Of a DNA stretch of 64,000 bases, positions 4,483-62,967 are shown piece after piece. How positions within the stretch are numbered: the stretch's first letter is position 1; each line of letters begins with the position of its first letter. The position numbers were made by a program, and so were the translations under genes. Location: the NCBI GenBank assembly GCA_045105515.1, contig JBGCDR010000045.1:11720-75719 (forward strand). Reading direction: 5' to 3'. The notes beneath the pieces are model-generated. The model did no database searches. It was not told the DNA's origin and saw only the letters and a list, made by a program, of their open reading frames with translations. Source of the DNA: Oligoflexales bacterium (lineage in GTDB: Bacteria; Bdellovibrionota_B; Oligoflexia; Oligoflexales; Bog-1112).

Positions 4483-4490
4483 ACTTTGTT

Positions 4491-5744
<1,254 letters not shown>

Positions 5745-28428: not shown

Positions 28429-28664
28429 GGTTACTCATCCAATCCGTTGTAGGCTTATTCATCTAATAATTTTGTAAAAAATTTACTAATTAATAAAACA
28501 AATAAAATATTTCTACTTATTTTGTTCAACTAGTATTGCACTCATACCAATATCTAAAGTCCAAGTTGCTGAAATTTAGCCTTTATTTTTTTTAAGCTCG
28601 CTTCTCTTTAGAGATTGATCGTATGAATCGATATACTCAGAGTCCCCCCCTGCTAGGATTAATT

Positions 28665-45219: not shown

Positions 45220-45615
45220 AGATTATTCCTTTTTAAAGGGCTTAACTATACCAATGAGATCAACGAAAATACTAAAGCAACACCTTAATATCCACTTAAA
45301 ATTTTAAACTATTTAAATATTTTCTTTGAAATTAATGAAGTTTAGACAAAACAATGGTGTACATTTAAAAGTAAAAATCTAAGTCTTTATTAACTTTTAA
45401 CAAACATAGGAAATTTTCATCAATCAGAGGGACCACTTGATAGCTTTGAAAAACCTGTTCTTTTTAAAAAATAGGTTTTTATTGTCATTGAATATAAATG
45501 GATTTGACAACAAAACATTGATTTTTCAGTTTCATATGTTAACAAGCACGTTGGTTGAAAAAATAGTATGTGCAGTATAAAAAGTAGCCTCAATAACCGT
45601 CCACAAGGGATAAAC

Positions 45616-46317
45616 ATGGAAACCCTTATCTATCAAGGTAAGTCTTTGAAGTTTTTCTATCCAATGGGAAGTAAAAAGCTTAAGGCATTAGATTGTCCAA
45701 ATTTGAACCTTCCAAAGGGTAAGCTAATTGCCCTTGCCGGACCTTCTGGCTCAGGCAAGTCTACACTGTTAAATTTACTGGGATTGATAGAGCCTATTCA
45801 GGAAGGCTCCATGTTATTTGCTGGTTATGATATAGGCAAACTCTCAGAAAAAGAAAAAACCCAAATTAGGCGTGATGATTTAGGCTTCGTTTTTCAAGAT
45901 TTCCTATTATTTGATGCTCTTACTGCTTGGGAAAATGTTGCATATTTCTTAAAAAACATTCCTATTTCAGCAACGGAGCGGAATCAGCGGGTAAACAGTT
46001 CTCTTGAGGCTGTTGGTCTCAAAGAACATACCAGTAAGCTGCCCCTTGAATTGAGTGGAGGTCAAAAGCAGCGGGTCGCAATAGCTCGAGCGATCGCGAA
46101 ACGGCCGAAAGTAATCATTGCTGATGAACCAACGGCTAGTCTTGATCAAAATACCGGTCGTATGATTATGAATATCTTCTGTTCTCTAACCAAAAAATCG
46201 GGAACTACAGTCATCTTTGCTAGTCACGATCCTATGGCACTCGAATTTGCTGAACTCCGAATAAAGCTTATAGATGGTCATGCAGAGTTGGTAAAGAAGC
46301 AGAAGGAGGTCACATAG
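45616..46317 (+). CDS. ABC transporter ATPase (LolD/MacB-like)
   Basis: GPSGSGKST, LSGGQKQRVAIARA, ADEPT and SHD; ATG at 45616 after AAGGGA. Confidence 0.93.
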   Translation: METLIYQGKSLKFFYPMGSKKLKALDCPNLNLPKGKLIALAGPSGSGKSTLLNLLGLIEPIQEGSMLFAGYDIGKLSEKEKTQIRRDDLGFVFQDFLLFDALTAWENVAYFLKNIPISATERNQRVNSSLEAVGLKEHTSKLPLELSGGQKQRVAIARAIAKRPKVIIADEPTASLDQNTGRMIMNIFCSLTKKSGTTVIFASHDPMALEFAELRIKLIDGHAELVKKQKEVT

Positions 46318-47537
46318 TGGAAGCATTTTCAATAACCTTGAAGCTTGCGTTTCGCAACCTTGTGAGAAATAAGCGTCGATCAGTTGCAGTTTTACTGACA
46401 ATTATTGCAGGAACAAGCTCATTGTTTCTATTTGATGGCTTTAATACAGGAATTATGAATCAATACCGCGAGAATACGATCCATGCTCGTTATGGCTATG
46501 GGCAGATTAATTCAAAAGGCTATCATGACCAAGTTTATGAAAAACCTTGGGATCATTGGATAGAAGATGCCGACAGAGTTTTAAGTGAAATCCGTAGTAT
46601 TCCTCAAGTTACGCACGTTTTTCCCCGGATAGAGTTTTACGGCCTTTTAAATAATGGTCAGATTTCCCTCAGTGGCAGAGGACAAGGGATCGATGGGCTT
46701 GCTGAAATGGGGTTCTTCAACACCCTAAATATTGTCGAAGGTAAAGCACTGAGTGATGAGATTGATGGACTTGTCCTTGGTCAAGGTTTGGCAAAGTCTC
46801 TAAATGCACGAGTTGGAGATCGCATCACTTTGTTAGCAAATACGATTTATGGGAGCATCAATGGGGTTGACCTCGTAGTGACAGGTATATTCCATACAGG
46901 TGCTAAGGAATTCGATGATGTGGTTTTCCGTTTGCCTTTAAAACTTAGCCAAGAGCTTTTAGACACAAAGAAGATTGAAAAATTTGCTCTTGGGCTTGAT
47001 CAATTAAGCTCGTGGGACCAGGTAACCGAGGAAATAACTAAAAACCATCAGGGACTTGAGGCAATACCTTTTGCTGTCTTAGATAAGGTTTACTATCAGC
47101 ACGCGGTTGATTGGCTTGGCTCACAGTTTCAGGTTATAAAGTTGATTATCCTGGTGATCGTGCTACTTGGAATCTTTAATACCGTATCTACAAGTGTCCT
47201 TGAACGTAAACAAGAAGTTGGTAATTTAAGGGCTAATGGCGAATCCGCTGGGCAAGTTATCAGCCTATTTTTGACCGAAGGGGGAATTCTAGGCTTGATA
47301 GGAGCTATGATCGGTATCGCCTTTACCATCCTGTTGAATATGAGTATTTTAGGAAACGGCATCCTCATGCCGCCCAGTCCAGGTATCACCAGGCAGTTTA
47401 GAGTTTTTATCGAGCTACAGTTATTCGGCTCGGCTGAGTCTTTTCTACTTTGTCTACTTTGCGTCATAATTGGTACCTTTTTTGCATCTGTCCAGGTCGT
47501 CCGTATGCCTATTGGTAAAGCACTTCGCAGCCTGTAA
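46317..47537 (+). CDS. ABC permease, LolC/E-FtsX type
   Basis: LAFRNLVRNKRRS, one TM plus a large periplasmic domain plus three TMs, and ERKQEVGNLRANG. Confidence 0.92.
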   Translation: MEAFSITLKLAFRNLVRNKRRSVAVLLTIIAGTSSLFLFDGFNTGIMNQYRENTIHARYGYGQINSKGYHDQVYEKPWDHWIEDADRVLSEIRSIPQVTHVFPRIEFYGLLNNGQISLSGRGQGIDGLAEMGFFNTLNIVEGKALSDEIDGLVLGQGLAKSLNARVGDRITLLANTIYGSINGVDLVVTGIFHTGAKEFDDVVFRLPLKLSQELLDTKKIEKFALGLDQLSSWDQVTEEITKNHQGLEAIPFAVLDKVYYQHAVDWLGSQFQVIKLIILVIVLLGIFNTVSTSVLERKQEVGNLRANGESAGQVISLFLTEGGILGLIGAMIGIAFTILLNMSILGNGILMPPSPGITRQFRVFIELQLFGSAESFLLCLLCVIIGTFFASVQVVRMPIGKALRSL

Positions 47538-47548
47538 TAGGAGGAGCT

Positions 47549-48286
47549 ATGGGTTTCTTTAATCCGAGAAAAATGTCTTTCCGATTCTTTAGTTGTTTAT
47601 TGTTGATTGTTTTATCTGACGTAGCTTGGGCAAAGATAGATGCTGCGGCCATTCTTAAGGAGGCTGATGCCATTCGTAACCCAAAGGAAGATTTTCAGAT
47701 GCTGGTTACGATTCAATCCTCTGGTGGGGAGGAGAAAGAGTTTAAGGTGATGACGAAAGGTAATAATCGTACCATCGTTGAAACCCTGGCTCCCAGGCGA
47801 GATAAAGGCAGAGACCTGCTGATGGTCGATGAGAATATGTGGGTTTTTATTCCAAATTTAAAGCGTACAGTTCGGGTTAGCCTGAATCAAAAATTAAGTG
47901 GTGAAGCAGCCAATGGTGATATTAGTCGAATGCGATGGGCAATGGATTACGCCGCTAAAATCGTAGGTTCTGATGTAAAATCTTGGACACTATTGCTAGA
48001 GGCTAATAAAAAGGGGCTGACTTACGAAAAGATCATAGCATTTGTTGAAAAAGGCAGTTTTAGACCGCTGGGAGCGAAATATTTAACAAAGTCAGGCAAA
48101 GTCTTAAAAGACGCTGAATTCAAAGCTTATAAGCTGTTAGCTGGAAAAGTTCGGCCCAGTCAGATTGTAATCAAAGATGCGATTAAAAAGGGGAAGTTTT
48201 CAACCATTGTGATTAAGGAAATGTCAGTGAAATCACTTCCATCTTCGAAATTTAACTTAAGTGGTTTTCAGACTAGGAGTCGCTAG
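47549..48286 (+). CDS. LolA-like outer-membrane lipoprotein-sorting protein
   Basis: Signal peptide; APRRDKG..LL, NMWVFIPNLKRTVRVS and GKVLK motifs; typical position after a LolCDE-like transporter. Confidence 0.8.
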   Translation: MGFFNPRKMSFRFFSCLLLIVLSDVAWAKIDAAAILKEADAIRNPKEDFQMLVTIQSSGGEEKEFKVMTKGNNRTIVETLAPRRDKGRDLLMVDENMWVFIPNLKRTVRVSLNQKLSGEAANGDISRMRWAMDYAAKIVGSDVKSWTLLLEANKKGLTYEKIIAFVEKGSFRPLGAKYLTKSGKVLKDAEFKAYKLLAGKVRPSQIVIKDAIKKGKFSTIVIKEMSVKSLPSSKFNLSGFQTRSR

Positions 48287-49464
48287 TGAACCGCTTTTCT
48301 TTTATTGTTCTAATTTGGTTTAATTGTTTGCTACCTTCTTTGCTAGGAGGAGTAAGTACTGACAAAGAACTCGGACTCGAAGTACTATGGGATCTCGAAT
48401 TAGAGCGCTTTAGGGTTTTTCGTCCCCATGGTAAAGCCCAGATAGATTTTGACTCAGAATCTGGGATGTACAATATGAGTCTTTCATTTTTGGCCTGGAT
48501 GAATGAAGCAGCTGATGTGGAAAATCAGTTGGACCAATCTAGAATTGAAGCCCGTTCTGCGCTGTTTAATTTCTTTTTTGACTCTTACCTTGTCTCAATA
48601 GGTCAGATGATTGTTGATTGGGGTGAAACTTTTGGCTATCGGCCTTCGGATTTAGTAAATGCGAGGGATTTAAGGAATTTCCCACCTCTAGATCTTGATG
48701 CTAATAAAATTCCTGTAACAGCAATGAGATTTGCAGGTTCGTTAGATTTTCTGCAAGGAGAATTCATTTTTAGTCCCTTGAGTTCCTACCCTCTATTGCC
48801 TAAACGTCTTGCTGACGGTAGTACCTTACGAGCTCCAACGAGGAACGAATCATGGTTTGAACAATCTGAATATGGGATGAAGCTAGGTATCTTACTTGGC
48901 TCGGGAAATATAGACTTTTATACCTACAAGCATCTTAATCGGATCCCTATACTAGACTTAAGCTCTGAAGGATGGAGGTCTCATTACGAGATTCTAGATT
49001 CTTTTGGTCTGAACTCTGCATTTAGTTTTGATAGTTTTGTAATTCGATGCGATGGACTTTTAAGTCCACGTCACCCCATACTCGTGCGAGCGTTTTCAGA
49101 TTTGAAGGAGTATGACAGGTACTTCTCTTTGACTTTTGGTTTAGACTGGAGCTATGAGCAGGTGTCCTTGCTGGGATTGCAGGCTCACCTTGAACGTTAC
49201 CCTATTAAAAAAGAACCAAACCAAAAAGGCATTAGTATGCAAGCTCGTCATGAACTATCGAATTTTAATGTTAGCCTTGCTCTCTCACTTTATCGGGGTT
49301 TTATCCACAAAGATCACCGTGAGGAGATCAAACTAAGCAAGAAGGTTGGGCCTAACTTAGATTTAAGCATTGGGCTTGAGCGTCTGTTCTGGGTTGAAAA
49401 TTCACCTATTGCCTTGACAGCAAATTCGCGAAGCTTTACTGGCAAGATAGCCTATCAATTTTGA
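48286..49464 (+). CDS. Putative outer-membrane beta-barrel protein (DUF1302-like)
   Basis: Signal peptide, IGQMIVDWG...PSDLVN motif, alternating beta strands and C-terminal YQF. Confidence 0.65.
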   Translation: MNRFSFIVLIWFNCLLPSLLGGVSTDKELGLEVLWDLELERFRVFRPHGKAQIDFDSESGMYNMSLSFLAWMNEAADVENQLDQSRIEARSALFNFFFDSYLVSIGQMIVDWGETFGYRPSDLVNARDLRNFPPLDLDANKIPVTAMRFAGSLDFLQGEFIFSPLSSYPLLPKRLADGSTLRAPTRNESWFEQSEYGMKLGILLGSGNIDFYTYKHLNRIPILDLSSEGWRSHYEILDSFGLNSAFSFDSFVIRCDGLLSPRHPILVRAFSDLKEYDRYFSLTFGLDWSYEQVSLLGLQAHLERYPIKKEPNQKGISMQARHELSNFNVSLALSLYRGFIHKDHREEIKLSKKVGPNLDLSIGLERLFWVENSPIALTANSRSFTGKIAYQF

Positions 49465-49473
49465 GGAAGGCTT

Positions 49474-50433
49474 ATGCATAAAATTAAGGTTTTATATAAC
49501 AAGAAAGCATCTCAGGAGAGCTCGAAATCCTGGCGAAAAGAAATAGAGTTGAAACTATTCCGCAGTAAAGTTGATTTTATTACAGCTGAGTCGCGCGAAG
49601 AGTTTGTAGATAAACTAAAAATCGTTTCCTCAACAAATACTGATGCTGTGATTTGTGTTGGCGGAGATGGTACCTTTAATACTATCTTACAAGAACTTTC
49701 ACGGATTAAAATCCCCTTTTTAGTTGTTCCAACCGGAACCGCAAATGACTTGGCTCACGACCTTGGAATGGATGGTAAAATCGGAAAAGCCATAGAATCT
49801 GTACGCTCAGGCCAATGCAAAGTTATTGATTTGATTAAAGTTAATGATCAACTTATGGCAAGCAATGGAGGAATTGGTTTAGTTGGAGAAGTAGCGGGTA
49901 TGGTGAATCGCTACCGAGATACCGTTCCAGGTTTTAAGCAGGCTATGCGCTTGCTTAAGAGTCATACTTATAGCGTTATGGTAGCTTCTCGTTTGTTTCA
50001 GCCTTTTAAACCCGTTGTAATGAAGATTGAGTCTGATGGGTTTGAAGGTGAAATATCCTCAGGTCTTCTCTTGGTTAATAATCAGCCTTGCATAGGTGGT
50101 CATTTTGTCATTGCTCCAGATACACAAAATAGTGATGGACATTTCAACGTTACCATATTCACACATAATTCAAGGATTTCAATTGCAGCAGCTATTCTAA
50201 GAGTACTCCGGGGTTTGCCTCTGGATCATGATCCCGGAATCATCACCTTTGAAACTTCAGAATTAAAAGTAAAGGCTTCCAGTCCACTCAGATTTTTTGG
50301 AGATGGAGAACTATTAACTGAAGATAAAAATATACGTTTTTCATTGTTGCCTAAGGCCATCAAAATCTTTCAACCATTTTGTAGCCAAACAAACTATGCT
50401 AAGCCCATAGCAGCTATGGAGCAATTAATATGA
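49474..50433 (+). CDS. Diacylglycerol/sphingosine kinase family (YegS/DgkB) lipid kinase
   Basis: GGDGT, PTGTANDLA, IDL, NQPCIGG and DGE. Confidence 0.88.
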   Translation: MHKIKVLYNKKASQESSKSWRKEIELKLFRSKVDFITAESREEFVDKLKIVSSTNTDAVICVGGDGTFNTILQELSRIKIPFLVVPTGTANDLAHDLGMDGKIGKAIESVRSGQCKVIDLIKVNDQLMASNGGIGLVGEVAGMVNRYRDTVPGFKQAMRLLKSHTYSVMVASRLFQPFKPVVMKIESDGFEGEISSGLLLVNNQPCIGGHFVIAPDTQNSDGHFNVTIFTHNSRISIAAAILRVLRGLPLDHDPGIITFETSELKVKASSPLRFFGDGELLTEDKNIRFSLLPKAIKIFQPFCSQTNYAKPIAAMEQLI

Positions 50434-51470
50434 GTAAAATCTTCGTTACGGGTGGCACTGGATTTTTAGGAAGACTGGTTCTTGAACAATTGCTAACCAA
50501 TGGGCATGAGGTGGTTGCTCTTGCCCGTAAACGTAGTTTGAGCACCATTGATATCGAGAATTGCTCAATGCTTAAATGGGTTGAAGGAGATATTTGTGAG
50601 GCGCAGGTTTTAGCTAATCCTGATGACTTTGAAATCCTAGCTGACTGTAAGCAAATCATCCATGCTGCAGCCCTATATGATCTGACTGCTTCCCCTTCGC
50701 TACTCTACGATGCAAATGTTGTAGGAACCCATAATATCCTTTCTTTAGCGGAAAAAATTAAAAATTTAGAAGCATTTCACCATATCAGTACCCTAGCTAT
50801 TGCTGGCGATTATAAAGGCATATTTACTGAGGAAATGTTCGACGAAGGGCAAGAATTTCCCGAAGCTTACAGCTCAACCAAATTTGCTGCAGAGGGATGT
50901 ATCAGGCAATGGTTAAGCCCTGTTTCAAAGTATATTCATCGCTTAGGAGTGGTGGTCGGGCACAGTAAAACGGGAGTATTTACAAAAGTTGATGGCCCTT
51001 ATTATTTAATTCGAGGTCTTAAACGTTTACTGAATTTGTTACCCTGGTTGCGGTTAAGCCCAATTTACCCGATTCCATACTGTGAAAAAGCACGGATCTT
51101 TTTGGTGCCTGTTGATGTTGCTGTAAATGCATTGGTACAGGTAGTAAATTCACCAATAAAGCCGATCAGAGGATTAATTAAGACTTATCATATCATGGGT
51201 GAACTTGGGGGAATTCCTATTCGTTTTCTCTTGGAAAGGGTCTTTGGTGAGTTCAAATGTGGTCATATGTTCACTCCTTTTCCATCCAGCCCTCTAACCG
51301 AAGTGAGTTTAAAAGCACTTGGGATACCTAAGCAGACTGAAGTTTATATGCGGTCAAAATGCAGGTTTACCACAAATAAAATTTGCAAAGATTATCCTAC
51401 TATTATCTTTCCAAAATTTGAAGATTATGGGCCATCTATGCTTAAATATGCTCGGCAGAATCTAATTTAA
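50430..51470 (+). CDS. Extended SDR reductase (fatty acyl reductase N-domain-like)
   Basis: FVTGGTGFLG, HAAALYDL, NVVGT, HIST, YSSTK and DGPYY. Confidence 0.82.
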   Translation: MSKIFVTGGTGFLGRLVLEQLLTNGHEVVALARKRSLSTIDIENCSMLKWVEGDICEAQVLANPDDFEILADCKQIIHAAALYDLTASPSLLYDANVVGTHNILSLAEKIKNLEAFHHISTLAIAGDYKGIFTEEMFDEGQEFPEAYSSTKFAAEGCIRQWLSPVSKYIHRLGVVVGHSKTGVFTKVDGPYYLIRGLKRLLNLLPWLRLSPIYPIPYCEKARIFLVPVDVAVNALVQVVNSPIKPIRGLIKTYHIMGELGGIPIRFLLERVFGEFKCGHMFTPFPSSPLTEVSLKALGIPKQTEVYMRSKCRFTTNKICKDYPTIIFPKFEDYGPSMLKYARQNLI

Positions 51471-51484
51471 AATGGGACGATCTC

Positions 51485-53581
51485 ATGAAATATATAGTCA
51501 GCATTTCTTTTGGCACCTCTAAACAGAATTATGATCGCACTTTCAAATTCCGTGACAACTCTGTCCGCATTTCCCAGTATGGCGCAGATTTTGATACCAC
51601 CGTGGTAGCTCATTTATTAAAGAAATTTGATGGTCATTGTGATGTAATCGCTTTGTCAGGATTTCAACCACCGGTTAGAGTGGGTCGTAAGACTTTTCAT
51701 CATCCTGATTCAGAGCGGCTTAAGTCAATTCCAAAAAAAACTCCAATCACTATGGGTTATGTGTTTCATAGATCATTTTTTCCGTGGGCTGTAGGGCGCT
51801 CGGGCATAGGTAAAAGACTTTTTCAGCAGTCTGCTATTCTCTTTGCCTCTGGCTTAGCAAGCCAAGGAATGGCAGAAACATTGTCTGAGTATACACAAAA
51901 ACTATATTTTGCAGATCCGGTGTTTCATTGGGGTCTTCCTCACTATCTTTACGGTTTAGAGGAACTCTCAGACTACGTTAGTCGGTTTGCTCCACTCCTG
52001 CGTTTGAAGACTTTTGCTAAGACCTCAAGAAATGTTTGTATCTTCCCTAAATGGGCAAGTATGCACCCACGCTTTCAACAAATTGAGCAAGCGGAGATCT
52101 TCGTTGCAACCGCAACCTTAGCTGAGCGGTTTGAATATGGTACCTTTAAGGATAAAATTCTTTTACTTGATCATGTACCAGTGCATCTATCCAGACAACT
52201 GAAGCGAGCAGGAGTTCAAGAGATCCTTTGCTTTCTTCCAGATCAGCCCTTTATTGATACACCTGCAAGCTTGAGTTACGGTGTTTGGGAAGCTTTGCTG
52301 CAGCTTGGAAAGGCAGATGATCGGGATATCGGATTTGACGACGTACTTGAATTAATCGAAGATGCCAAGCTGAAGCCACGGATGCACACATTAAACCATC
52401 ATACAATTAAACCAGGCAGAAAATTTGCTTTTATTGTTCATCCTTTAAGTGTCCAAGATTTATTCAGGCACCCCTTGCTGAGTCCTGTGAAAAAAGTAGC
52501 AAGCCCATTTAATGGGCTGATTGAACAAGGATTAAAAAAATTACCAGGAAGGCCCTATGGTCGCATTCAAGGAGTGGTGAGTGAAAAGGATGGCCAAAGG
52601 GTAGAGGGGCTAGTTTACACTCTTTTTGATACCCCTAAACAACTCTTGGCAGCTAAGCCTGAGGAAGTTTACAAAAAATTGATTAGACTGTGCGAGCGAG
52701 CTAAACAAGATGGAGCCCATATTGTTGGCTTAGGTGCGTTTACTAAAGTGGTTGGAGATGCTGGTGTCACGGTAGCTGCAGCCAGCCCCATTCCTGTAAC
52801 AACAGGAAACTCTTTGTCTGCGTCTGCATCTTTATGGGCAGCCAAAGTTGCATGCAAAAAAATGGGGATCCTGGAACATAAAACTCCCGATAAAAGGTAT
52901 CGAGCTACTGCTATGATTGTGGGTGCAACAGGTAGCATCGGAGCAGTTTCGGCAAAACTATTATCCAAGGTGGTTGATAAATTAGTTTTGACAGCACCTA
53001 GACCAAACAAACTTCTAGAAATAAAAGATGAAATAGAGGCTCTTTCTCCCGGAGTTTCCATAAAAATTGCAACTAATAACAACAAATATTTGTCAGATAG
53101 TGACTTAATTGTCATCTCCACTAGCTCTCCAGATGGAAATGTCTTTGATCTGGGAAAGGTTAAGCCTGGCGCAGTAATTTGCGATGTTTCAAGGCCACTA
53201 ACCTTCGGTGCAGAGCAGGCAGCTACCAGGCCGGATGTGTTAATCGTTGAAAGCGGCGAGGTTGTTCTTCCTGGCGATTATTCGGTTAGCTGTGACCTAG
53301 GTCTTGAAGATAATATTGTCTATGCATGCCTGGCAGAAACTGCTCTTTTAGCGCTAGATGGTCGTATGGAGAATTTTACTATTTCTCGTACCATAGATTA
53401 TGAAAAAGTTAGCGATATTTATGAAATAGCTAGGATACATGGAGCAAAATTAGCAGCTATTCGTGGACCTAGTGGTCTTATTACCGATCAGGAAATCTTG
53501 TTGTGCCGTGAGCATGCAGAACTTAAAAAGCAGAGTTTCAAAATTCGAAGACCATCTTTCGAAAGGCTTATGCATGAATAA
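51485..53581 (+). CDS. Two-part protein: unknown N-terminal domain plus a long-chain acyl-ACP reductase-like domain
   Basis: C-terminal half has FAFIVHP, GLGAFTKVV, TTGNS, VGATGSIG, CDVSRP and ACLAE (catalytic Cys position of cyanobacterial AAR). Confidence 0.7.
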   Translation: MKYIVSISFGTSKQNYDRTFKFRDNSVRISQYGADFDTTVVAHLLKKFDGHCDVIALSGFQPPVRVGRKTFHHPDSERLKSIPKKTPITMGYVFHRSFFPWAVGRSGIGKRLFQQSAILFASGLASQGMAETLSEYTQKLYFADPVFHWGLPHYLYGLEELSDYVSRFAPLLRLKTFAKTSRNVCIFPKWASMHPRFQQIEQAEIFVATATLAERFEYGTFKDKILLLDHVPVHLSRQLKRAGVQEILCFLPDQPFIDTPASLSYGVWEALLQLGKADDRDIGFDDVLELIEDAKLKPRMHTLNHHTIKPGRKFAFIVHPLSVQDLFRHPLLSPVKKVASPFNGLIEQGLKKLPGRPYGRIQGVVSEKDGQRVEGLVYTLFDTPKQLLAAKPEEVYKKLIRLCERAKQDGAHIVGLGAFTKVVGDAGVTVAAASPIPVTTGNSLSASASLWAAKVACKKMGILEHKTPDKRYRATAMIVGATGSIGAVSAKLLSKVVDKLVLTAPRPNKLLEIKDEIEALSPGVSIKIATNNNKYLSDSDLIVISTSSPDGNVFDLGKVKPGAVICDVSRPLTFGAEQAATRPDVLIVESGEVVLPGDYSVSCDLGLEDNIVYACLAETALLALDGRMENFTISRTIDYEKVSDIYEIARIHGAKLAAIRGPSGLITDQEILLCREHAELKKQSFKIRRPSFERLMHE

Positions 53582-54689
53582 TAAAGCATACTTTTCAAAA
53601 CTAAATTACACCTTGGCTAACGAAGATAGTAGTTTAGAGTATCAAATGGTCAAAGAGCTTAAACCTGAAAGGGTCTTGAGTGTATGCGGTAGTGGAGGTC
53701 GGGCTTTGCCCCTTGCTGCTCACACTAGAAAAGATCTGGTTTGCTGTGATATGGCAGAAGAACAGTTGCTACTTGGAAAACATCGGATGGCAACTTACTC
53801 CCTCGATTTTCGTGATTTTTTGATGTATTGGGGGTTTGCTCCTTTCTCAACGACAGAAAACCGTGGTATTCGTCAGGAAATATTTTCGCAGTTAACCCTA
53901 GATGAAAAGACCCGAGCTTATTTTGATGACTTATATCACCAGATTGAATATGAAGGGATCTTATACCATGGTAGTTGGGAGAAGACTTTTACTGGGGTTC
54001 CCCTAACTCTAAAAAGATTAATCGGTGGTAGCTATGATAAAATCTTTAACTTCACTGATTTAGAGGAGCAAAAACGTTATTTCGATAAAGCTCTTGAAGA
54101 CTCTTTGTGGCTTGCTGTTCCGCGCATGGTCTTAAAGGCATTTGGTAATGCAGCATTTTTCAATGCGTTCTTATATAAAGGTAATTTTGCAAAAAAGAAT
54201 ATACCTGAATCCCATTATGAAATTTACCGAAAAGCTTATAGAAGGCTTTTTTATCAAGGATTAACCAGGGAAAATTTTTTTCTGCAGCTCTCATTTCTAG
54301 GAAGAATTGCTTACCCAGAGGCAAATCCTGTTGAAGCTAAAGAGGAGTTTTTTCCAGAAATTGTTTTGGGTCTTAAACAATGTCATGTAACTTTTGAAAA
54401 AAAAGATATCATAGATTGTGCCGTCGAAGCCACTGAAGGATTTAACTTTGTTTCCTTTAGTGATGTACCTTCCTATTTATCGGGAATATCGGAACGAGAT
54501 TACCTACAGAGACTAAAAAATGGCTTGCGGCATAATGCTCTTGTGGTCGTCCGGTGCTACCTGAGAATTCCCGAAAATACTGATTTGTCGGGATATGAAG
54601 ATGTTACTGAAAAGTATCAAAATCTCATCGATGCAGAACAAACTCAAGTTTACAGAATTTTTGTTTATCAATTCAGGGGAAATTTATGA
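53574..54689 (+). CDS. DUF3419/BtaA-like SAM-dependent 3-amino-3-carboxypropyltransferase
   Basis: LNYTLANED, VLSVCGSGG, GSWEK, ENFF and SFSDVPSY; the ATG at 53574 overlaps the upstream stop. Confidence 0.7.
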   Translation: MNNKAYFSKLNYTLANEDSSLEYQMVKELKPERVLSVCGSGGRALPLAAHTRKDLVCCDMAEEQLLLGKHRMATYSLDFRDFLMYWGFAPFSTTENRGIRQEIFSQLTLDEKTRAYFDDLYHQIEYEGILYHGSWEKTFTGVPLTLKRLIGGSYDKIFNFTDLEEQKRYFDKALEDSLWLAVPRMVLKAFGNAAFFNAFLYKGNFAKKNIPESHYEIYRKAYRRLFYQGLTRENFFLQLSFLGRIAYPEANPVEAKEEFFPEIVLGLKQCHVTFEKKDIIDCAVEATEGFNFVSFSDVPSYLSGISERDYLQRLKNGLRHNALVVVRCYLRIPENTDLSGYEDVTEKYQNLIDAEQTQVYRIFVYQFRGNL

Positions 54690-56098
54690 ACTGTGTCAAA
54701 CTTGTACTTGCTGCTATAAAAAAAGAACCAGAAAAAATTGCTATTCAAATGATCCGGGGAGATAAGGCCAGCTTTAGAGAATTGGAAGTTATAGCTCGAA
54801 AAACACAGGCATTGTTGCTTGAAAAAGGGGTCCAAAAAGGGGATCATGTCTTGCTCTTTATTCCTTTGAGTCCAATGCTATATGGTACGATCATTGGACT
54901 TGCAGCAATGGGAGTTTCTATTGTTCTTGTTGAGCCTTGGATGCCAGTAGCAAAAATTAATAGGTTGATAGGCAAAATAAGACCAAAAGCTTTTATTACT
55001 GGAAGTCTGGGTATGCTTTGGGGGATGCGGTCTCAAGGGGTACGTAATATTCCTCTATGGCTTAAGGAACGTTCTATCGATCAAATGATTGGAATAAATG
55101 ACTTAAAAATTGAGGAACAGCTCGATGAGGCACCAGCAATTATTACCTTTACCACTGGGACCACTGGAGAACCTAAGGGGATGATTAGAAGTCATAGCTA
55201 TTTGGCGGACCAGCACCGTATCTTATCCGCCTCTTTAGGTAGTGAACTCGGTCCCGACTTGTGTATATTTGCTAATTTTGCATTGGGAAACCTAGCTTCT
55301 GGGAGGACCTCAATCATTGTTACCCCTAAATGGAAAGTAAAAGACCTCAATGCTCTGGATAGTCTGCCAGATGATTTAGCACCACAAAGTTTGACATGTG
55401 GCCCTGGATTTTTGCTTAAATTGATGAAGCACGCGAATGTGCCTTCACTAAAATCTATTCATGTGGGTGGAGCACTCACTGATTGTTGGATATTTGAGCA
55501 TGCTTTTGATAAATGGCCATCTACTCATTTTACTCATCTATATGGAAGTACAGAAGTTGAACCCGTTGCCTTGGTAGATGCAAAGCTTGCAGTGAAAAAA
55601 AGCAGAGAAGCTGGATTTTTCCAGACTGTCTTTTTAGGAAAACCCATCGAGTCCATTAAATCTCGAATTGAGGCTGATACGGTCTGGGTAAGTGGACCCC
55701 ATGTTTGTCCGAAGTATCTCTATAACCCGAGCGAAAATCATAAAAATAAGCATACTGATCATGATGGCCAGGTATGGCATCGTATGGGTGACCGTATTAA
55801 GCAGGATGAAGGTTTTTGGTGGTATAGAGGCCGTTCAGGTCAAGCTGAAGAATCATTCATGAATGAGCAATATCTTTATAAAGCGATAGGATCGAGTGCA
55901 GGTTTTCTTAATGAAGAAGGTGGGATACCCATATATTATGGGCAGAATGCAAGCCTGCAGAAGGATGTAATCCAAAGGGCTATTCCTCGGATTACGAAAG
56001 TAATGAGCATTAATATAAAGCGGGATCCGCGTCATAAAGCCCGTATAGATCGGGTTGCGAGTATGAATGCAAGGCATTGGATTGGAGGGATTTTATGA
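54686..56098 (+). CDS. ANL-superfamily adenylation enzyme, OleC-like
   Basis: FTTGTTGEPKG, YGSTEVEP, VSGPHV, WHRMGD, GR and C-terminal DPRHKARID. Confidence 0.8.
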   Translation: MNCVKLVLAAIKKEPEKIAIQMIRGDKASFRELEVIARKTQALLLEKGVQKGDHVLLFIPLSPMLYGTIIGLAAMGVSIVLVEPWMPVAKINRLIGKIRPKAFITGSLGMLWGMRSQGVRNIPLWLKERSIDQMIGINDLKIEEQLDEAPAIITFTTGTTGEPKGMIRSHSYLADQHRILSASLGSELGPDLCIFANFALGNLASGRTSIIVTPKWKVKDLNALDSLPDDLAPQSLTCGPGFLLKLMKHANVPSLKSIHVGGALTDCWIFEHAFDKWPSTHFTHLYGSTEVEPVALVDAKLAVKKSREAGFFQTVFLGKPIESIKSRIEADTVWVSGPHVCPKYLYNPSENHKNKHTDHDGQVWHRMGDRIKQDEGFWWYRGRSGQAEESFMNEQYLYKAIGSSAGFLNEEGGIPIYYGQNASLQKDVIQRAIPRITKVMSINIKRDPRHKARIDRVASMNARHWIGGIL

Positions 56099-56946
56099 GG
56101 AGTCCATGGGTAGAATATTTGCGTGAACGCTTTCCTTTGCCTGTCTATCTCACCCTTGTAGGTGGTTTTGTTAGTTCAGGCGCAATACTGAGTGGAAAGC
56201 CTTTTAGCCTGATGAGTGTCGTTACAGCATTTTTTGCAGTCTTGTCTTTCTTTGGATTACTTAGGTTAATGGATGAGTTTAAGGACTATGATATCGACTT
56301 GATCGCTCACCCTGAGAGGCCCTTACCAAGGGGGCTGCTAGGTGTTAGACAGGTTAAAAAAATAATCATTAGATGGGAAGTACTGATGCTTATGCTTGCC
56401 CCTTTTATTGGCTTAATTTTTAATTGGCAAGCTGCAAGTATTTATATTTTAATGATCGGGCACCTTTGGCTCATGTACAAAGAATTCTATGTGAGTGAGT
56501 GGATAGAAAAACATACTATCCTATATGCATTTTCTCATCAGCTTGTTCTCATTTGGGTTTGTAGTTTTTGCGTGGTTATAGCTAATCATTCTGGATTATT
56601 TAAAGCCGAAACATGGTGGTATGGAACTTTGATACTTGGATCATTCTTCACCTATGAAATTTGTCGCAAACTTGATCCTAGAGCCCATGAAATGTTACGA
56701 ACCTATCGTAATTTATTTGGACTTATACAGACAGGTATTTTGCTTATGTTTTCTTGCCTTATAGCATGCTTGTCAGCTTGGAAATTGGGTTTAGGCTTCC
56801 CACTTTGGATTGCCAGTATGGCAGTTGTTGGAGCATATTGTTGCTTTGCTAAGAAAAATTTTAAGACCGTTGAGTCAGTGGCTACCCTTTCACTTGTTCT
56901 CCATCTATGGACTTTGCCTCTTCTAAAACTATTGGAGTCAATATGA
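56095..56946 (+). CDS. UbiA-superfamily membrane prenyl/alkyl transferase
   Basis: YLRERFP, RLMDEFKDYDIDLIAHPERPLPRG and YEICRK; multiple TM helices; ATGA overlap with the upstream gene. Confidence 0.8.
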   Translation: MRSPWVEYLRERFPLPVYLTLVGGFVSSGAILSGKPFSLMSVVTAFFAVLSFFGLLRLMDEFKDYDIDLIAHPERPLPRGLLGVRQVKKIIIRWEVLMLMLAPFIGLIFNWQAASIYILMIGHLWLMYKEFYVSEWIEKHTILYAFSHQLVLIWVCSFCVVIANHSGLFKAETWWYGTLILGSFFTYEICRKLDPRAHEMLRTYRNLFGLIQTGILLMFSCLIACLSAWKLGLGFPLWIASMAVVGAYCCFAKKNFKTVESVATLSLVLHLWTLPLLKLLESI

Positions 56947-59672
56947 GACAAATCATCCTAAATGCAAATCGATCCATTGCGGAGTTCGTAAAATATGGTG
57001 GCGGTAAAGCCAAGAATATGGCTTTGTTGACGCAAAAAAATTACTTAGTGCCTCACTGGTTTTGTATAGGAACTTATGGTTTTGATTTATTTGTTAAAGA
57101 GCACGATCTTAGATCTGAGCTCAGAATTCAAAGCGAAAATTTTGCTTCAGAAGCCATGCGTATTGAGGGCCTATTTAGTCAGCTTCCAATGCCTTTAGTC
57201 ATCAAAGAAAGTATAGCTGCAGCAATGAAGGATAATAGCCTTGAAAACGAATTCGTAGCAGTTCGATCTAGTGGCTTAGATGAGGATTCACCGGACCATT
57301 CCTTTGCAGGTCAATATTCATCATTCCTTTATCAAAAAGGGATTGAACAGCTTATAAGTAGCTTGAAGTTATGCTGGGCTAGTGGATTTTCTGAGCGCTC
57401 CTTGAGTTATCGAAAAGAGCGTTCAATTAGCCTCGACGGGATACGTGTGGGTGTCCTTATCCAAAAGATGGTGAACCCAAAGTCAGCTGGAGTTGCCTTT
57501 TCGCGCCATCCTATTAAAGTTCTTGAACGGGAAAAAGTTCTCATTAGTTCTGTTTGGGGCTTAGGAGAAGGTTTGGTAAGCGGTGCATTAGATGCTGATG
57601 AGTTTGAGGTAGAACGTAGTAGCCGGGTAGTTGATGGAAAGGTTGCTAACAAGGAGTTTAAGTACCATAGATGTGATCTAGGTGGAATTGAGAAAGTATT
57701 ACTTTCTGATGAATCCAGACAGGCACCTTCTATAGATGATGAGCAAATTAGGGAAGTTTGTGATTTATGTATTAAGCTTGAACAAGACTTTGGAGTTCCA
57801 CAGGATTGCGAATGGGTCTATGAAAATAAACAATTATTTTTAGTCCAAACGAGGCCAATTACAAACCTGCCAAAAGATGCTTTTTTTGATTCAAAAGTGA
57901 ATGGACATAACCCTATCCTTTGGGACAACTCGAATATAGTAGAATCCTATTCTGGGGTAACTTCACCTCTAACATTTAGCTTTGCTAGTCGAGCTTACCA
58001 GCAGGTCTATGTGCAATTCTGTGAGCTAATGGGTGTTCCAGAAGATTTAGTCCAAGAGTACGAACCAATCTTCAGAAATATGTTGGGGCTTATAAGAGGG
58101 AGGATCTATTATAATCTTATCAATTGGTACCAGCTTGTTTTAATGCTACCTGGGTCAAGTAGTAATAAAGGTTTTATGGAAACCATGATGGGTGTCAAGG
58201 ATCAAGTGAGACCTGAGCTGAAAGAAATCTTCAAAAAAGTTGAAAATCCTCCAGAGTATAGTTTCGTAAAGCGTGTTTGGCTTACCATTAAAACCTTCCA
58301 AAGGTTTGTTGGTATTGATAGCATCATCAATAGTTTTCAGACCCACTTTAATCACGTTTATGAGGAGGCAAAGCAGGTTGACTTTGCTTCTTTGTCCTTG
58401 AGTAAACAGATGGACTATTATCATCACCTTGAGCGGCAATTGCTTAAGAGGTGGCATGCACCCATAATTAACGATTATCTATGCATGTTGTTTTTTGGTC
58501 TGTTGAAAAAACTTACCGATGCTTGGATTTCTGGTGAAGTCAAGAACGATACACTCCAAAATGATCTCCTTTGTGGAGAAGGGGGTTTAGATAGTACTGA
58601 GCCAACTAAATGTTTAATGCGCATCGCAAAAAAGATCGATCAAGGAGAGGTAAAAATTCGTACTTGGTTTTTGTCTCATGACCCTGAAGATCTGTGGGCA
58701 CAGTTTCAATCAGGCCTGGGTCCCTTGGATATCTATAAACAATTTACTTATTTTCTCGATCAGTTTGGTTTCCGTTGTGTTAACGAGCTTAAGCTTGAGG
58801 AACAAGATTTACATGATGATCCAAGTTTTGTTGTTGGTTCTGTGCAGAGTTATATTCGTTCTAAGTCCTACCATATTGAAGAAATGGAAAAACGTGAACG
58901 GTTTATAAGGTCAGAGGCTGAAAAAAAAGTAAAATCTTTGATAAAGACTTGGCAAAAGCCAATTTATCTATGGGTTCTTAGCCAAGCTCGGAAAGCAGTT
59001 AAGAATAGAGAAAACCTCAGGTTTGCTCGAACTAAATTTTTCGGAATTTCAAGGCACCTATTTCGCAGTATGGGAGGGAATCTGTGCAAGCTAGGTCATT
59101 TGGCTTCAGAAAAAGACATCTTTTTTATTACTATTGAAGAATTAGTAGCTTTTGTGGAAGGTCGGGCGCTTTTGACTGATTTTAAAGAGCTAGTAAATAC
59201 AAGGAAAAGAGAGTTTTTAGAATATCAAAATACTCCTGAGCCGCCTGAGAGATTTACAACTCAAGGAGCTGCAACAGCAGCCTGCTCTTTTACTGCAGTA
59301 TTGGCTGAAGCAGATCTGCTACGTAATAAATTCCTCAGTGATGATCCCAATGTTTTTTTTGGAACTCCTTGCTGTCCAGGAATAGTCGAAGGAGTCGTTA
59401 GGGTAGTTAAATCCCTTGATGATGCAAAAGGGCTTGATGGGGAAATACTTATTACGGCAAGGACTGATCCTGGATGGGTTCCATTATATCCATCTTGTTC
59501 CGGATTGATTATTGAACGAGGCAGTTTATTATCCCATTCAGCGGTAGTAGCAAGAGAATTGGGTTTACCCACTATTGTTGGTGTTAATGGTAGCCTTGTG
59601 AGCAAGATATCTACAGGAATGAGGGTTAGAATTGATGCGGGTAAGGGAGAAGTAAAAATCTTGGAGCAATAA
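56943..59672 (+). CDS. PEP synthase / rifampin phosphotransferase-like enzyme (ATP-grasp, substrate domain, swivelling His domain)
   Basis: GGKA, AVRSS..DED..SFAGQY, QKMV, GLGEGLVSG, QTRPIT, TDPGW and SHSAVVARELG; ATGA overlap. Confidence 0.9.
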   Translation: MRQIILNANRSIAEFVKYGGGKAKNMALLTQKNYLVPHWFCIGTYGFDLFVKEHDLRSELRIQSENFASEAMRIEGLFSQLPMPLVIKESIAAAMKDNSLENEFVAVRSSGLDEDSPDHSFAGQYSSFLYQKGIEQLISSLKLCWASGFSERSLSYRKERSISLDGIRVGVLIQKMVNPKSAGVAFSRHPIKVLEREKVLISSVWGLGEGLVSGALDADEFEVERSSRVVDGKVANKEFKYHRCDLGGIEKVLLSDESRQAPSIDDEQIREVCDLCIKLEQDFGVPQDCEWVYENKQLFLVQTRPITNLPKDAFFDSKVNGHNPILWDNSNIVESYSGVTSPLTFSFASRAYQQVYVQFCELMGVPEDLVQEYEPIFRNMLGLIRGRIYYNLINWYQLVLMLPGSSSNKGFMETMMGVKDQVRPELKEIFKKVENPPEYSFVKRVWLTIKTFQRFVGIDSIINSFQTHFNHVYEEAKQVDFASLSLSKQMDYYHHLERQLLKRWHAPIINDYLCMLFFGLLKKLTDAWISGEVKNDTLQNDLLCGEGGLDSTEPTKCLMRIAKKIDQGEVKIRTWFLSHDPEDLWAQFQSGLGPLDIYKQFTYFLDQFGFRCVNELKLEEQDLHDDPSFVVGSVQSYIRSKSYHIEEMEKRERFIRSEAEKKVKSLIKTWQKPIYLWVLSQARKAVKNRENLRFARTKFFGISRHLFRSMGGNLCKLGHLASEKDIFFITIEELVAFVEGRALLTDFKELVNTRKREFLEYQNTPEPPERFTTQGAATAACSFTAVLAEADLLRNKFLSDDPNVFFGTPCCPGIVEGVVRVVKSLDDAKGLDGEILITARTDPGWVPLYPSCSGLIIERGSLLSHSAVVARELGLPTIVGVNGSLVSKISTGMRVRIDAGKGEVKILEQ

Positions 59673-60694
59673 TGAATATTGAAATTATTCCAGCTAAGAT
59701 CGATCAATTGAGGGTAGAAGATTTTTGCAAATTTCAGCAAACGCATGGAAATCGCGAGTATGATAAAGGATTTTTACCTACAAAGGTTTGGCAACAATTT
59801 CTTGAGCAAGCTCCAGAATCTCTTGCTGAATTCTGGCTTGCTTATTATGAGGATAAGCCTGTAGGTAGGATTGGTGCTTCCCTTATGCCATCATATCAAG
59901 GGCTAGGAAGCATCGGTTTTTTTGAATGCGATTTAACTCTAAGTTCATATCGAGAAATAATCTTCGCTCTTTTGCAAAAAGCCATTGATTGGTTGAAGGC
60001 CAGATCATGTTATAAAGCAGTTGGACCAATGAATATGAACACTTGGTTTCCATATCGTTTTCGTAGCGATGAAGATATTGTTAAACGCTATATTTGGGAA
60101 CCTGTACACCCTCCTGAATATCTTGAGGAATGGATTAGCTTCGGATTTTCTGTAAATGCAAGATATAAGGCTTTCAATACAGATCAACTTGCTGGTTTTA
60201 TAAGAAAGACTAAACCTTCTTATAATAGTTGTATAGAAAAGGGTTTTCACTTCCGTGACTTCGATCAGGACTGTTTCTTAGAACGTGATGTCCCGATTCT
60301 TTATGAAATGAGTATGGAATGTTTTAAAGACAACTATTTGTTCGAACCTATCAGCCTAGATTCTTTTCGCTCTCTCTATGTACCAATAGCAGATAAGATA
60401 GATCATTCTTTAGGCCAGCTTTGCTTTGCAAAGGATGGAAGCCCTGCCGGTTTTGGCTTTTCTTTTATCGATGGTGATTCTTTTGTACTAAAAACTCTAG
60501 CAACAATGCCTCAGCAGCGAGGGCATGGTATCAGCAATGCTTTGGCTTATTTGGCTGGAACTACAGCCTATGACAGAGGTTTTAACAACTACATTACTGC
60601 AATTATACATGCTGGAGCACAGAGTGAATCCTATGGAAAAAAAGGTAACATCATCTGGGAACATAACTACGATCTCCTTGAAATATCGATCTAA
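59672..60694 (+). CDS. GNAT-fold acyltransferase (tandem GNAT)
   Basis: VGRIGAS, GFFEC, GPMN and C-terminal LKTLATMPQQRGHGIS (acyl-CoA-binding motif A). Confidence 0.75.
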   Translation: MNIEIIPAKIDQLRVEDFCKFQQTHGNREYDKGFLPTKVWQQFLEQAPESLAEFWLAYYEDKPVGRIGASLMPSYQGLGSIGFFECDLTLSSYREIIFALLQKAIDWLKARSCYKAVGPMNMNTWFPYRFRSDEDIVKRYIWEPVHPPEYLEEWISFGFSVNARYKAFNTDQLAGFIRKTKPSYNSCIEKGFHFRDFDQDCFLERDVPILYEMSMECFKDNYLFEPISLDSFRSLYVPIADKIDHSLGQLCFAKDGSPAGFGFSFIDGDSFVLKTLATMPQQRGHGISNALAYLAGTTAYDRGFNNYITAIIHAGAQSESYGKKGNIIWEHNYDLLEISI

Positions 60695-60831
60695 GTCCGC
60701 TGCCTAATGGATAATTTTGCTTAAATTTGATAGAATTTATTTGCAATTGAGCACTAATCATCGAAAGCATTTCCTTGTTAAATACAAGTTCAATGATTAT
60801 ATAGAGATATACCGAAAATGGAGGTTTAGCT

Positions 60832-61230
60832 TTGAAAAAATTTAGAGTCTTACTGATTGAAGATGATGATACTCAGAGAGAATTACTTAGTGAGACCATA
60901 CCATTTAAATCAAATCTAGATATTACTGTCACAACTGCAGAAGATGGCTTATGTGGAATTCAAAAATCCGAGTCAGAAAGTTATGATGTGGTTGTTACAG
61001 ATTATTATATGCCTAATTTGGATGGTCTTGAGTTCATCAAAAAATTTCGAGAACATGAAACTAATAAGAAGGTTCCGGTAATTTTCGTATCCGGATTCTT
61101 TTCAGAATTAGATACCGCAAATAATAAACAATATTTCGAAAATGTCACTTTTTTACAAAAACCTTTTTCGATTAACGACCTGATTAAGAAAGTAGACTTT
61201 TATTTGCTTGCTAAGGACCTTCCAGCTTAA
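60832..61230 (+). CDS. Single-domain response regulator
   Basis: LLIEDD, VTDYYMP, FVSG and LQKPF; TTG start after GGAGG. Confidence 0.9.
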   Translation: MKKFRVLLIEDDDTQRELLSETIPFKSNLDITVTTAEDGLCGIQKSESESYDVVVTDYYMPNLDGLEFIKKFREHETNKKVPVIFVSGFFSELDTANNKQYFENVTFLQKPFSINDLIKKVDFYLLAKDLPA

Positions 61231-61346
61231 GCTTTCATTCCAGTACGATCTTAAAAAAAGTCAGGTTTGAAAAAAGATTCTCCGCAAAGGGAGATCTGTA
61301 GGAATATTATTATAAATATTGTGGTAGGTTTGTTTTGTTTCTATTA

Positions 61347-62678: not shown

Positions 62679-62967
62679 CTTGGCCTCCTTAACTCTTTGT
62701 TTTTTATACTGCTTTGTTGATTTTATTGTGGTCTGTTTTATTTCCACTGTCAATATTAATCCAGATGGAATGATGGAATTTTAAATTCTGCAGAATATTT
62801 TTGCTGTTAAATTATATGGACAAATTCTTCCTAGTCCACTGAATCAAGTTGTTTTCGAACTGCCTGATTTTTCGCTAATAATTTTTGGACGGATGTTTTT
62901 TTTGCAGCTAGGCATAGGCTCTACTATAATTGACATCAGTTAATATAGGGTCAAACAGGAGTAGTCT

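Follow-up and report, generated by a model that had tools for sequence, protein, structure and literature searches.

Introduction

The proteins described here resemble parts of several known systems. DevBCA-TolC is the exporter of heterocyst glycolipids and lies beside genes for a fatty-alcohol-based envelope lipid. BtaA moves 3-amino-3-carboxypropyl from S-adenosylmethionine (SAM) onto a lipid hydroxyl. In phytol salvage, the kinases VTE5 and VTE6 act in succession and feed UbiA-family transferases (chlorophyll synthase and VTE2). Canonical UbiA enzymes have a first Asp-rich motif of the NDxxDxxxD type and a second, DxxxD. Sphingosine kinases, which share the DAGK_cat fold, phosphorylate the terminal alcohol of a long chain. 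Likenesses to these systems and to the LolCDE-LolA pathway come together in twelve consecutive open reading frames (ORF1 to ORF12) of an Oligoflexales bacterium (assembly GCA_045105515.1, contig JBGCDR010000045.1, positions 11,720 to 75,719 of the forward strand). This whole stretch of 64,000 nucleotides is called the window below, and the genome is called G000.

On balance, it appears probable that the twelve genes form one conserved biosynthesis-plus-export unit for a specialised amphiphilic lipid of the envelope or cell surface. By sequence comparison, each protein falls in a known superfamily, and the combination resembles a Lol- or DevBCA-type export system attached to a fatty-alcohol lipid pathway. 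Judged by model scores and motifs, the operon nevertheless fails membership in LolCDE, DevA, AAR, RPH, PigC and canonical UbiA. The cluster family is real, conserved and of the lipid type, and it lacks a published characterisation. Indeed, no description of this gene combination or its product was found in the full-text literature (bioRxiv supplements and subscription journals lay outside the search), in agreement with the original prediction, made from the letters of the window, that no characterised product was known. Passages of one paper (PMC12419801) treat other LolA-like and UbiA-like neighbourhoods.

Results

Organization of the operon

The ORFs are co-directional on the + strand and cover 45568-60694 in the ORF list, or 45616-60694 when the inner ATG is used (Table 1). 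Inner ATG starts were adopted at 45616, 53574, 56095 and 56943, and all Pfam matches begin downstream of these. Neighbouring genes overlap at 46317 (1 nt), 48286 (1), 50430 (4), 53574 (8), 54686 (4), 56095 (4), 56943 (4) and 59672 (1); the other junctions are gaps of 11 nt after 47537, 9 nt after 49464 and 14 nt after 51470. The overlaps and the gaps under 15 nt claimed in the original prediction were thus reproduced exactly from the ORF coordinates. Its gene order and all of its family assignments were borne out at the domain level by Pfam and NCBIfam, and by structure for ORF4. No polyketide synthase (PKS) or nonribosomal peptide synthetase (NRPS) core was present among the Pfam matches of the twelve products, as it had stated. 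Equivalog cut-offs were reached by none of the products; ORF5 alone passed the model of a broad lipid-kinase subfamily.

Table 1. Coordinates in the window and main domain evidence for the twelve genes and the region upstream of them (E-values, with bit scores where given).
Feature	Positions	Strand	Length (aa)	Evidence
ORF1, ABC transporter ATPase	45616..46317	+	233	Pfam ABC_tran 2.6e-33, 115.9 bits; longer frame from 45568
ORF2, MacB/FtsX-type permease with periplasmic core domain	46317..47537	+	406	Pfam MacB_PCD 2.1e-12 (48.2 bits), FtsX 7.8e-14 (52.2 bits)
ORF3, secreted LolA_like carrier protein	47549..48286	+	245	Pfam PF17131 2.1e-34, 119.2 bits (threshold 30)
ORF4, outer-membrane beta-barrel, DUF1302/porin type	48286..49464	+	392	Structure model
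ORF5, YegS/BmrU-family lipid kinase	49474..50433	+	319	DAGK_cat 2e-22, YegS_C 5.2e-15
ORF6, extended-SDR thioester/aldehyde reductase, FAR-like	50430..51470	+	346	NAD_binding_4 6.8e-36
ORF7, two-part reductase	51485..53581	+	698	PigE N-terminal model 7.8e-46, residues 313-681
ORF8, DUF3419 (BtaA-family, SAM-dependent fold)	53574..54689	+	371	Pfam DUF3419 3.9e-23, 82.7 bits (threshold 28.2)
ORF9, adenylate-forming (ANL) enzyme	54686..56098	+	470	AMP-binding 4.4e-25
ORF10, divergent UbiA-superfamily membrane transferase	56095..56946	+	283	Pfam UbiA 2.2e-12, 47.2 bits (threshold 34.2)
ORF11, PEP-synthase/RPH/PigC-type phospho-His dikinase	56943..59672	+	909	PPDK_N 8.4e-71 (239.4 bits), PEP-utilizers 1.7e-18 (66.4 bits)
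ORF12, two-domain GNAT acyltransferase	59672..60694	+	340	Acetyltransf_1 2.7e-9, residues 36-115
AT-rich intergenic region, likely promoter region	45220..45615	.		Between divergent upstream gene (44479-45219, -) and ORF1

Conservation of the cluster in related genomes

An alignment of ORF7 homologs was used to fetch the DNA of relatives, with one genome per species. Of 576 confirmed stretches, the best 80 were retained together with flanks of up to 10 kb at either end. Forty-nine of these 80 loci are of the Bdellovibrionota/Oligoflexia type, and all of their ORFs were clustered; 28 of the 49 measure at least 19 kb (hereafter, long loci). The kinase-SDR-ORF7 triad was present in 28/28 long loci, always in the same order. 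DUF3419 genes were found in 27/28 long loci, and the AMP-binding/UbiA family and the dikinase in 23/28 each; all six core families were present in 20/28.

The genes fall into modules whose order and strand vary from locus to locus: kinase, SDR and ORF7 in the first; AMP-binding enzyme, UbiA and dikinase, then GNAT or a formyltransferase, in the second; ABC, FtsX, LolA_like, barrel and DUF3419 in the third. Gene content that is kept while its order is shuffled is a classic sign of functional coupling. Co-occurrence was also counted in 401 sampled genomes from the phylum of Bdellovibrio sp. HCB-162, with E up to 1e-30 for ORF7 and up to 1e-120 for the dikinase. The ORF7 type was found in 105 genomes and the ORF11-type dikinase in 122, with both in 102 and neither in 276; as related genomes are non-independent, these are given as counts with no P value. 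Because the neighbourhoods are shuffled yet conserved and the genes co-occur genome-wide, we consider the cluster genes to be functionally linked, as one unit. The co-occurrence across genomes on which the original prediction was to be judged was thus found, both in the long loci and in the 102 of 105 ORF7-type genomes that also encode the dikinase.

The remaining 31 of the 80 loci (Actinomycetota, Marinobacter, Hahella and others) had the ORF7 type alone or with the SDR only. Full-length ORF7-type tandem proteins occur in this way outside Bdellovibrionota at 34-44% identity (loci L050-L052, L054-L071 and L073-L082, which also include Oleiphilaceae). For instance, the ORF7-type gene of Marinobacter sp. 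ATCH36 has unrelated neighbours (aldolase, peptidase and Na/H exchanger). In seven loci (L004, L022, L024, L026, L029, L030 and L049), a family of about 240 aa without a Pfam match lies near the cluster, often just upstream of the kinase or ABC gene (e.g. L022:7237-7980); it has no homolog in the window.

Natural variants and fusions

A GNAT gene was present in 15/49 loci and a Formyl_trans_N protein (250 aa), which keeps NIHHGLLP..RG, in 14/49; the two were never found together. Of the 23 long loci with the dikinase, 20 had one or the other. Since these enzymes alternate and both modify amines, their exchange argues for a primary amine in the cluster product. By family, the sole amine-introducing enzyme of the core is the BtaA-family ORF8. 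The original prediction had described an aminocarboxypropylated and acylated amphiphile: this idea gains indirect support from the swap, and the chain type and ether link that it also named stay conjectural.

In the formyltransferase variant, the adenylating enzyme has an N-terminal alpha/beta-hydrolase domain. AMP-binding and UbiA domains are joined in one 828-aa ORF of locus L017, and the 760-aa ORFs of L029 and L030 combine AMP-binding with a C-terminal part that was aligned to ORF10 by tblastn. These fusions tie ORF9 and ORF10 together. Other proteins of about 800 aa, taken for AMP-UbiA fusions after single-linkage clustering, were rejected as such, since Pfam assigns them an alpha/beta-hydrolase domain joined to AMP-binding. 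Some variants also come with P450, MBL-fold hydrolase and nitroreductase genes.

The kinase and reductase genes

ORF5 passed TIGR00147 (119.6 vs a cut-off of 118.65 bits) and has GGDGT at residues 63-67. ORF6 matched PRK07201 (5.6e-63) and the thioester-reductase domain TIGR01746 (3.5e-25). Its GGTGFLG at 8-14 and YSSTK at 147-151 correspond to GxTGxxG and YxxxK.

The C-terminal half of ORF7 (310-698) matches PDB entries 4ppm (the PigE N-terminal part) and 6jzq (cyanobacterial AAR). It shares with them the fold, the nucleotide-binding motif (GATGSIG at 480-486, in the corresponding position) and the catalytic Cys: Cys615 aligns with Cys294 of AAR in 6jzq, and the residue was invariant in 12/12 aligned sequences. 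ORF7 scored 52.4 bits (4.7e-14) against the AAR model TIGR04058, far from its equivalog cut-off of 449.7. As part of one report describes, PigE reduces a thioester, which provides a precedent for the reductase chemistry (PMC8341465). In public records, homologs of the cluster proteins go by 'dehydrogenase', 'predicted amino acid dehydrogenase', 'DUF3419 family protein' or 'hypothetical protein'. Carriers on record that can be cultured include Oligoflexus tunisiensis, Halobacteriovorax marinus and Bdellovibrio isolates.

When the whole ORF7 model was searched with Foldseek, matches covered the C-terminal half only. The N-terminal half (1-305) was modelled separately, with a pLDDT of 85, and its top folds were AAR (Z 11.6) and the carmabin TAD (Z 11.2). 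Because this is only about 2 Z above the broad background of periplasmic-binding-protein folds (Z about 9), an AAR-like fold of the N-terminal half is probable rather than certain. This half is without the AAR Cys. It is therefore probable that ORF7 consists of two AAR-like halves in tandem, with catalysis expected in the second alone. It differs from AAR and the PigE N-terminal part in being twice as long, with the extra half, and in its partners, which are an SDR and a lipid kinase in place of an aldehyde-deformylating oxygenase or an aminotransferase.

The DUF3419, adenylating, UbiA-like, dikinase and GNAT proteins

ORF8 belongs to the same Pfam family as BtaA. NEDxxxE, GSGxR and D..Q are kept across 38 cluster-linked homologs, and ORF8 is a member of a separate, cluster-tied subfamily. 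Several sources name ORF8 homologs 'S-adenosylmethionine-diacylglycerol 3-amino-3-carboxypropyl transferase'; a PDB sequence search with ORF8 gave 0 matches at E up to 1. Unlike the BtaA/BtaB pathway to DGTS, the operon lacks a BtaB methyltransferase, and the amine would be acylated or formylated. Moreover, a second DUF3419 gene of the same genome (G000:C405:2559-3656, - strand; locus L088) scored 205 bits, vs 82.7 for ORF8, and may be the true BtaA-type betaine-lipid enzyme. It adjoins a Ca2+-dependent PI-PLC-like gene (L088:852-1781) on a contig of 4.2 kb.

The best model for ORF9 was PRK09274 (1.7e-44), with TGTTGEPK at residue 157. OleC models matched at 1.5e-17, so that the "OleC-like" of the original prediction holds as a generic likeness to adenylating enzymes and fails as OleC membership.

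Of the solved structures in the PDB, DGGGP synthase (2.9e-4) and chlorophyll synthase (3.4e-4) came closest to ORF10. Its first acidic motif persists in an altered form (D60 E61 xx D64 xxx D68) that aligns with the motif of DGGGP synthase, and D60, E61, K63, D64, D68, R75 and R79 were invariant in 13/13 aligned sequences. A prediction of an ORF9-ORF10 complex scored 0.00; controls were not run, and the result was used neither way.

ORF11 has the three-part architecture of RPH and PigC, with a PPDK_N ATP-grasp domain, a central domain and a swivelling His domain in which His865 lies within SLLSH, which we take to be the His-domain motif. Full-length matches were obtained with PigC (1.4e-97) and RedH (3.2e-98), RPH lying with these two in the range of about 1e-92 to 1e-98, and PDB entry 5fbs matched at 1.3e-70. 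It differs from these enzymes in scoring below every equivalog cut-off (RPH 311/999, PigC 328/1300, RedH 330/1350 and TIGR01418 265/740 bits) and in having its own subfamily, NF004881, for which it scored 872.2 bits with a cut-off of 883.

ORF12 showed a further, weak Acetyltransf_7 match at 253-293. Its Atlas neighbours were GNAT clusters of about 340 aa, and a PDB sequence search gave a single match, at E 0.11.

The export genes

ORF1 and ORF2 display the architecture of a MacB-type (type VII) exporter, with FtsX, the MacB periplasmic core and a separate ABC ATPase. The top NCBIfam models for ORF1 were the DevA family (194 bits, 1.9e-57; cut-off 296) and LolD TIGR02211 (168.7 bits; cut-off 307.75), and ORF2 scored 94.8 bits against lolCE TIGR02212, whose equivalog cut-off is 362.45. 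The permease had been called "LolC/E-type" in the original prediction; this description fits its architecture, and equivalog membership was not borne out. The hydrophobic N-terminus of ORF3 was read as a signal peptide. ORF4 had no match in Pfam, NCBIfam or a PDB sequence search. In an Atlas structure search, its model matched DUF1302 porin clusters at TM 0.91 with a feature score of 0.98. No membrane-fusion protein (a MacA/DevB-type protein with an MFP/HlyD-type Pfam match) was found among the twelve products.

Like LolCDE-LolA, the operon combines a MacB/FtsX permease, a separate ATPase and a soluble LolA-fold carrier without a membrane-fusion protein. It differs in having a DUF1302-like barrel instead of LolB as its partner at the outer membrane, in that the cargo would be a small lipid and not a lipoprotein, and in the low LolC/E and LolD scores. 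It shares with DevBCA-TolC an FtsX/MacB-type ABC exporter encoded beside genes for a fatty-alcohol envelope lipid, DevA being the best model for ORF1. Unlike that system, its ATPase is under the DevA cut-off, a DevB-type fusion protein is missing, and it has a LolA_like carrier and its own barrel.

A better LolCE candidate (247.5 bits) was found in the same genome at G000:C178. At G000:C239:3290-8413 (locus L087), a paralogous envelope set encodes a LolA_like protein scoring 151 bits, a pair of MacB_PCD/FtsX permeases and an ABC ATPase. Two proteins with no Pfam match (379 and 629 aa) follow, and the set has no biosynthetic neighbours. Because ORF1 and ORF2 fall below the LolD, LolC/E and DevA cut-offs, and because a better LolCE candidate and a second set are encoded elsewhere, ORF1-4 are read as a dedicated paralogous system of Lol-like architecture, distinct from the housekeeping Lol pathway. 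"Lol" here denotes likeness, not membership.

Operon boundaries and genomic surroundings

An AT-rich spacer of 350 nt precedes ORF1, next to the divergent gene. The region 45220..45615 contains at best weak sigma-70-like matches (9/12), and a promoter there is a candidate. A consensus scan returned 31 promoter-like sites vs 38.9 expected and was uninformative; weak terminator-like sites within genes numbered 21 on both strands vs 13.4 expected from shuffles (45000-61500). A clear operon boundary was not found by this simple promoter and terminator scan of 45000-61500. No RNA run containing the stretch was listed in a sequencing-run search; three DNA runs from one study contain it and are perhaps its source.

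Downstream, a 137-nt spacer separates ORF12 from a gene for a receiver-only response regulator, a stand-alone receiver domain of 132 aa (60832-61230, +) with a TTG start and its own Shine-Dalgarno sequence. Since its homologs lie near the cluster in only 2/80 related loci, this gene is probably outside the cluster. It is followed by a convergent gene for an FG-GAP repeat protein (61347-62753, -). The divergent gene upstream encodes a secreted protein of 246 aa, unrelated to the family of about 240 aa found near the cluster elsewhere and without a tblastn match in any related locus.

The GC content of the operon is about 0.40, equal to the remainder of the window, and the neighbours in the window include the housekeeping genes proS, guaB, guaA, dnaE, recJ, fliM and a che cluster. 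An origin as a mobile element or island was rejected on these grounds.

Other features of the window were recorded in passing. The AT skew is -0.32 in the 2-kb bin 4001-6000, which covers a 417-aa ORF (4491-5744, -) with no Pfam match, overlapped by a 285-aa ORF of the + strand. Paralogous receiver-plus-TPR proteins (721 and 750 aa) are encoded at 18624-20789 and 28623-30875, on either side of dnaE. Also present are a Ser/Thr kinase fragment with a PP2C phosphatase (23165-24672) and, at 33932-34918, a PI3/PI4-kinase-like gene.

Discussion

The domain identities, the linkage of the genes and the retention of catalytic motifs in all the enzymes are established from sequence. The invariance of the kinase-SDR-ORF7 triad is the main argument for ORF5 acting on the product of the reductases. 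A pathway can be proposed on this basis. ORF9 would activate a fatty acid, the AAR-like ORF7 (through Cys615 and its NAD(P)H site) would make an aldehyde from the acyl thioester, and the SDR ORF6 would convert the aldehyde to a fatty alcohol, which ORF5 would phosphorylate to an alkyl phosphate. ORF11 might then add or activate a second phosphate, or activate another hydroxyl. ORF10 would couple the phosphorylated lipid to an acceptor in the membrane; ORF9, ORF10 and ORF11 travel together among related loci. ORF8 would transfer 3-amino-3-carboxypropyl from SAM to a hydroxyl, and the GNAT ORF12 would N-acylate the resulting amine, with N-formylation in the sister variant. Finally, the product would leave the inner membrane through the MacB-type ABC pump (ORF1 and ORF2), cross the periplasm on the LolA_like ORF3 and be taken up at the outer membrane by ORF4, the DUF1302-like barrel.

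In its middle part, where an alcohol meets two phosphorylating enzymes and a membrane transferase of the UbiA family, the scheme follows the logic of phytol salvage. The operon differs in having kinases of unrelated families (DAGK_cat and PEP-utiliser dikinase), a fatty acid as the presumed source of the alcohol, and an ORF10 without the second Asp-rich motif. The alkyl-phosphate/UbiA/aminocarboxypropyl scheme and the structure of the product (an ether bond, a prenyl or alkyl chain) are conjectures from family membership. Taken to its full extent, the scheme would run from a fatty alcohol through two unrelated kinases to an alkyl (or 2-alkenyl) diphosphate, which a divergent UbiA using this non-isoprenoid donor would turn into an ether lipid with an N-acyl- or N-formyl-homoserine-type head group. 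Lol-like export of this free lipid would make it a signature envelope lipid in a quarter of Bdellovibrio-like bacteria. In such detail, the proposal is a doubtful one.

Several observations weigh against a single unit working in this way. The cluster is patchy: ORF7 homologs were found in 33/131 genomes of the window's own GTDB phylum and in 1/15 genomes of its own family beside G000, and the cluster is thus an accessory trait, patchily kept. Among the 401 genomes, the dikinase type occurred without an ORF7 match in 20, and the reverse was seen in 3. Neither an acyl carrier protein nor a polyprenyl-diphosphate synthase is present among the Pfam matches of the twelve products, which bears on the acyl donor and on the diphosphate substrate of ORF10. 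A saturated alkyl diphosphate would be a poor electrophile for UbiA-type chemistry, and an alkyl diphosphate is awkward unless allylic. In ORF10 the second DxxxD is absent, with invariant E188, R191 and K192 in its place and a D194 that is not conserved (13 sequences); given this absence, ORF10 may be something other than an alkyl or prenyl transferase. A scheme in which ORF9 acts first and ORF10 late is hard to square with the AMP-UbiA fusion, which hints at a closer coupling. Finally, the substrate of ORF8 may differ from that of BtaA, given its score beside that of the second DUF3419 copy.

It is unlikely that the cluster remodels the head group of an ordinary glycerolipid. ORF5 and ORF8 would then act on diacylglycerol or an existing membrane lipid, as DgkB/YegS and BtaA do. 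The product would be of the homoserine type, N-acylated and phosphorus-poor, with a side group, not the backbone, coming from the reductases and the UbiA-like protein. This would agree with the YegS/BmrU model passed by ORF5, with the BtaA family of ORF8 and the transferase name given to its homologs, and with the GNAT/formyltransferase alternation, which fits an amine on a homoserine head group. However, the kinase accompanies two reductases in all 28 long loci, which suggests that it acts on what they make. The twelve products include no methyltransferase of the BtaB type, and the better-scoring DUF3419 copy elsewhere is likelier to be the true BtaA.

A diffusible specialised metabolite, such as a signal or an antibiotic, also seems improbable as the product. 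A prodiginine/tambjamine-like logic would involve fatty acid activation, reduction of the thioester to an aldehyde and an ATP-dependent condensation by a PigC/TamQ-like ORF11, with exit through the MacB-type pump. Tambjamine biosynthesis uses an acyl-CoA-forming enzyme and a PigC homolog. The match of ORF7 to the PigE N-terminal reductase and the full-length matches of ORF11 to PigC and RedH are in line with such a route, as are the P450, MBL-fold and nitroreductase genes of some variants, which recall secondary-metabolite clusters. In addition, a fusion of a thioester reductase with a transaminase is reported from tambjamine biosynthesis (PMC9594044). On the other hand, ORF11 is far under the PigC and RedH cut-offs and scores equally with RPH. 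No aminotransferase, pyrrole-forming, PKS or NRPS domain is present in the twelve products, which sets the operon apart from prodiginine and tambjamine clusters. Moreover, the lipid kinase, the UbiA-type enzyme, the LolA_like carrier and the barrel argue for a membrane-bound, very hydrophobic product.

The claim of an own export system in the original prediction is weaker than stated there: the exporter adjoins the enzymes in only 10/28 long loci, and a gene for an outer-membrane barrel comes with it in 9 of these. That an envelope transporter (MacB/LolA_like, ORF1-4) and lipid enzymes (ORF5-12) are unrelated units lying side by side, without an export role, is very unlikely: 18/28 long loci are without a transporter within 10 kb of the enzymes (a further point against the single unit) and the second LolA_like/FtsX/FtsX/ABC set on C239 has no biosynthetic neighbours, but the 9-nt gap joins both parts inside an overlap-rich operon, the transporter genes lie beside the enzymes even in Bdellovibrio (30-35% identity) with differing orders and strands, the order LolA_like, barrel, DUF3419 is fixed there with the DUF3419 gene directly after the other two, and 9 of the 10 adjacent transporters bring their own barrel gene.

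Altogether, one biosynthesis-plus-export unit for an envelope or surface lipid is the reading that we favour. Standard genome mining largely overlooks lipid-type clusters that have no PKS or NRPS core, and about one in four of the species sampled from two phyla of predatory bacteria (105/401; 33/131) conserves this unit. It sits in an ordinary chromosomal context, with its own envelope transport route. The GNAT/formyltransferase variants and the natural fusions are ready experimental handles. If true, the proposal would bear on UbiA-like and PigC/RPH-like chemistry beyond the known roles of these enzymes, and, through the LolA_like carrier and the DUF1302 barrel, on how hydrophobic molecules that are not lipoproteins cross the periplasm. 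A new surface lipid would also bear on how the outer membrane of Bdellovibrio-like bacteria differs from that of their prey.

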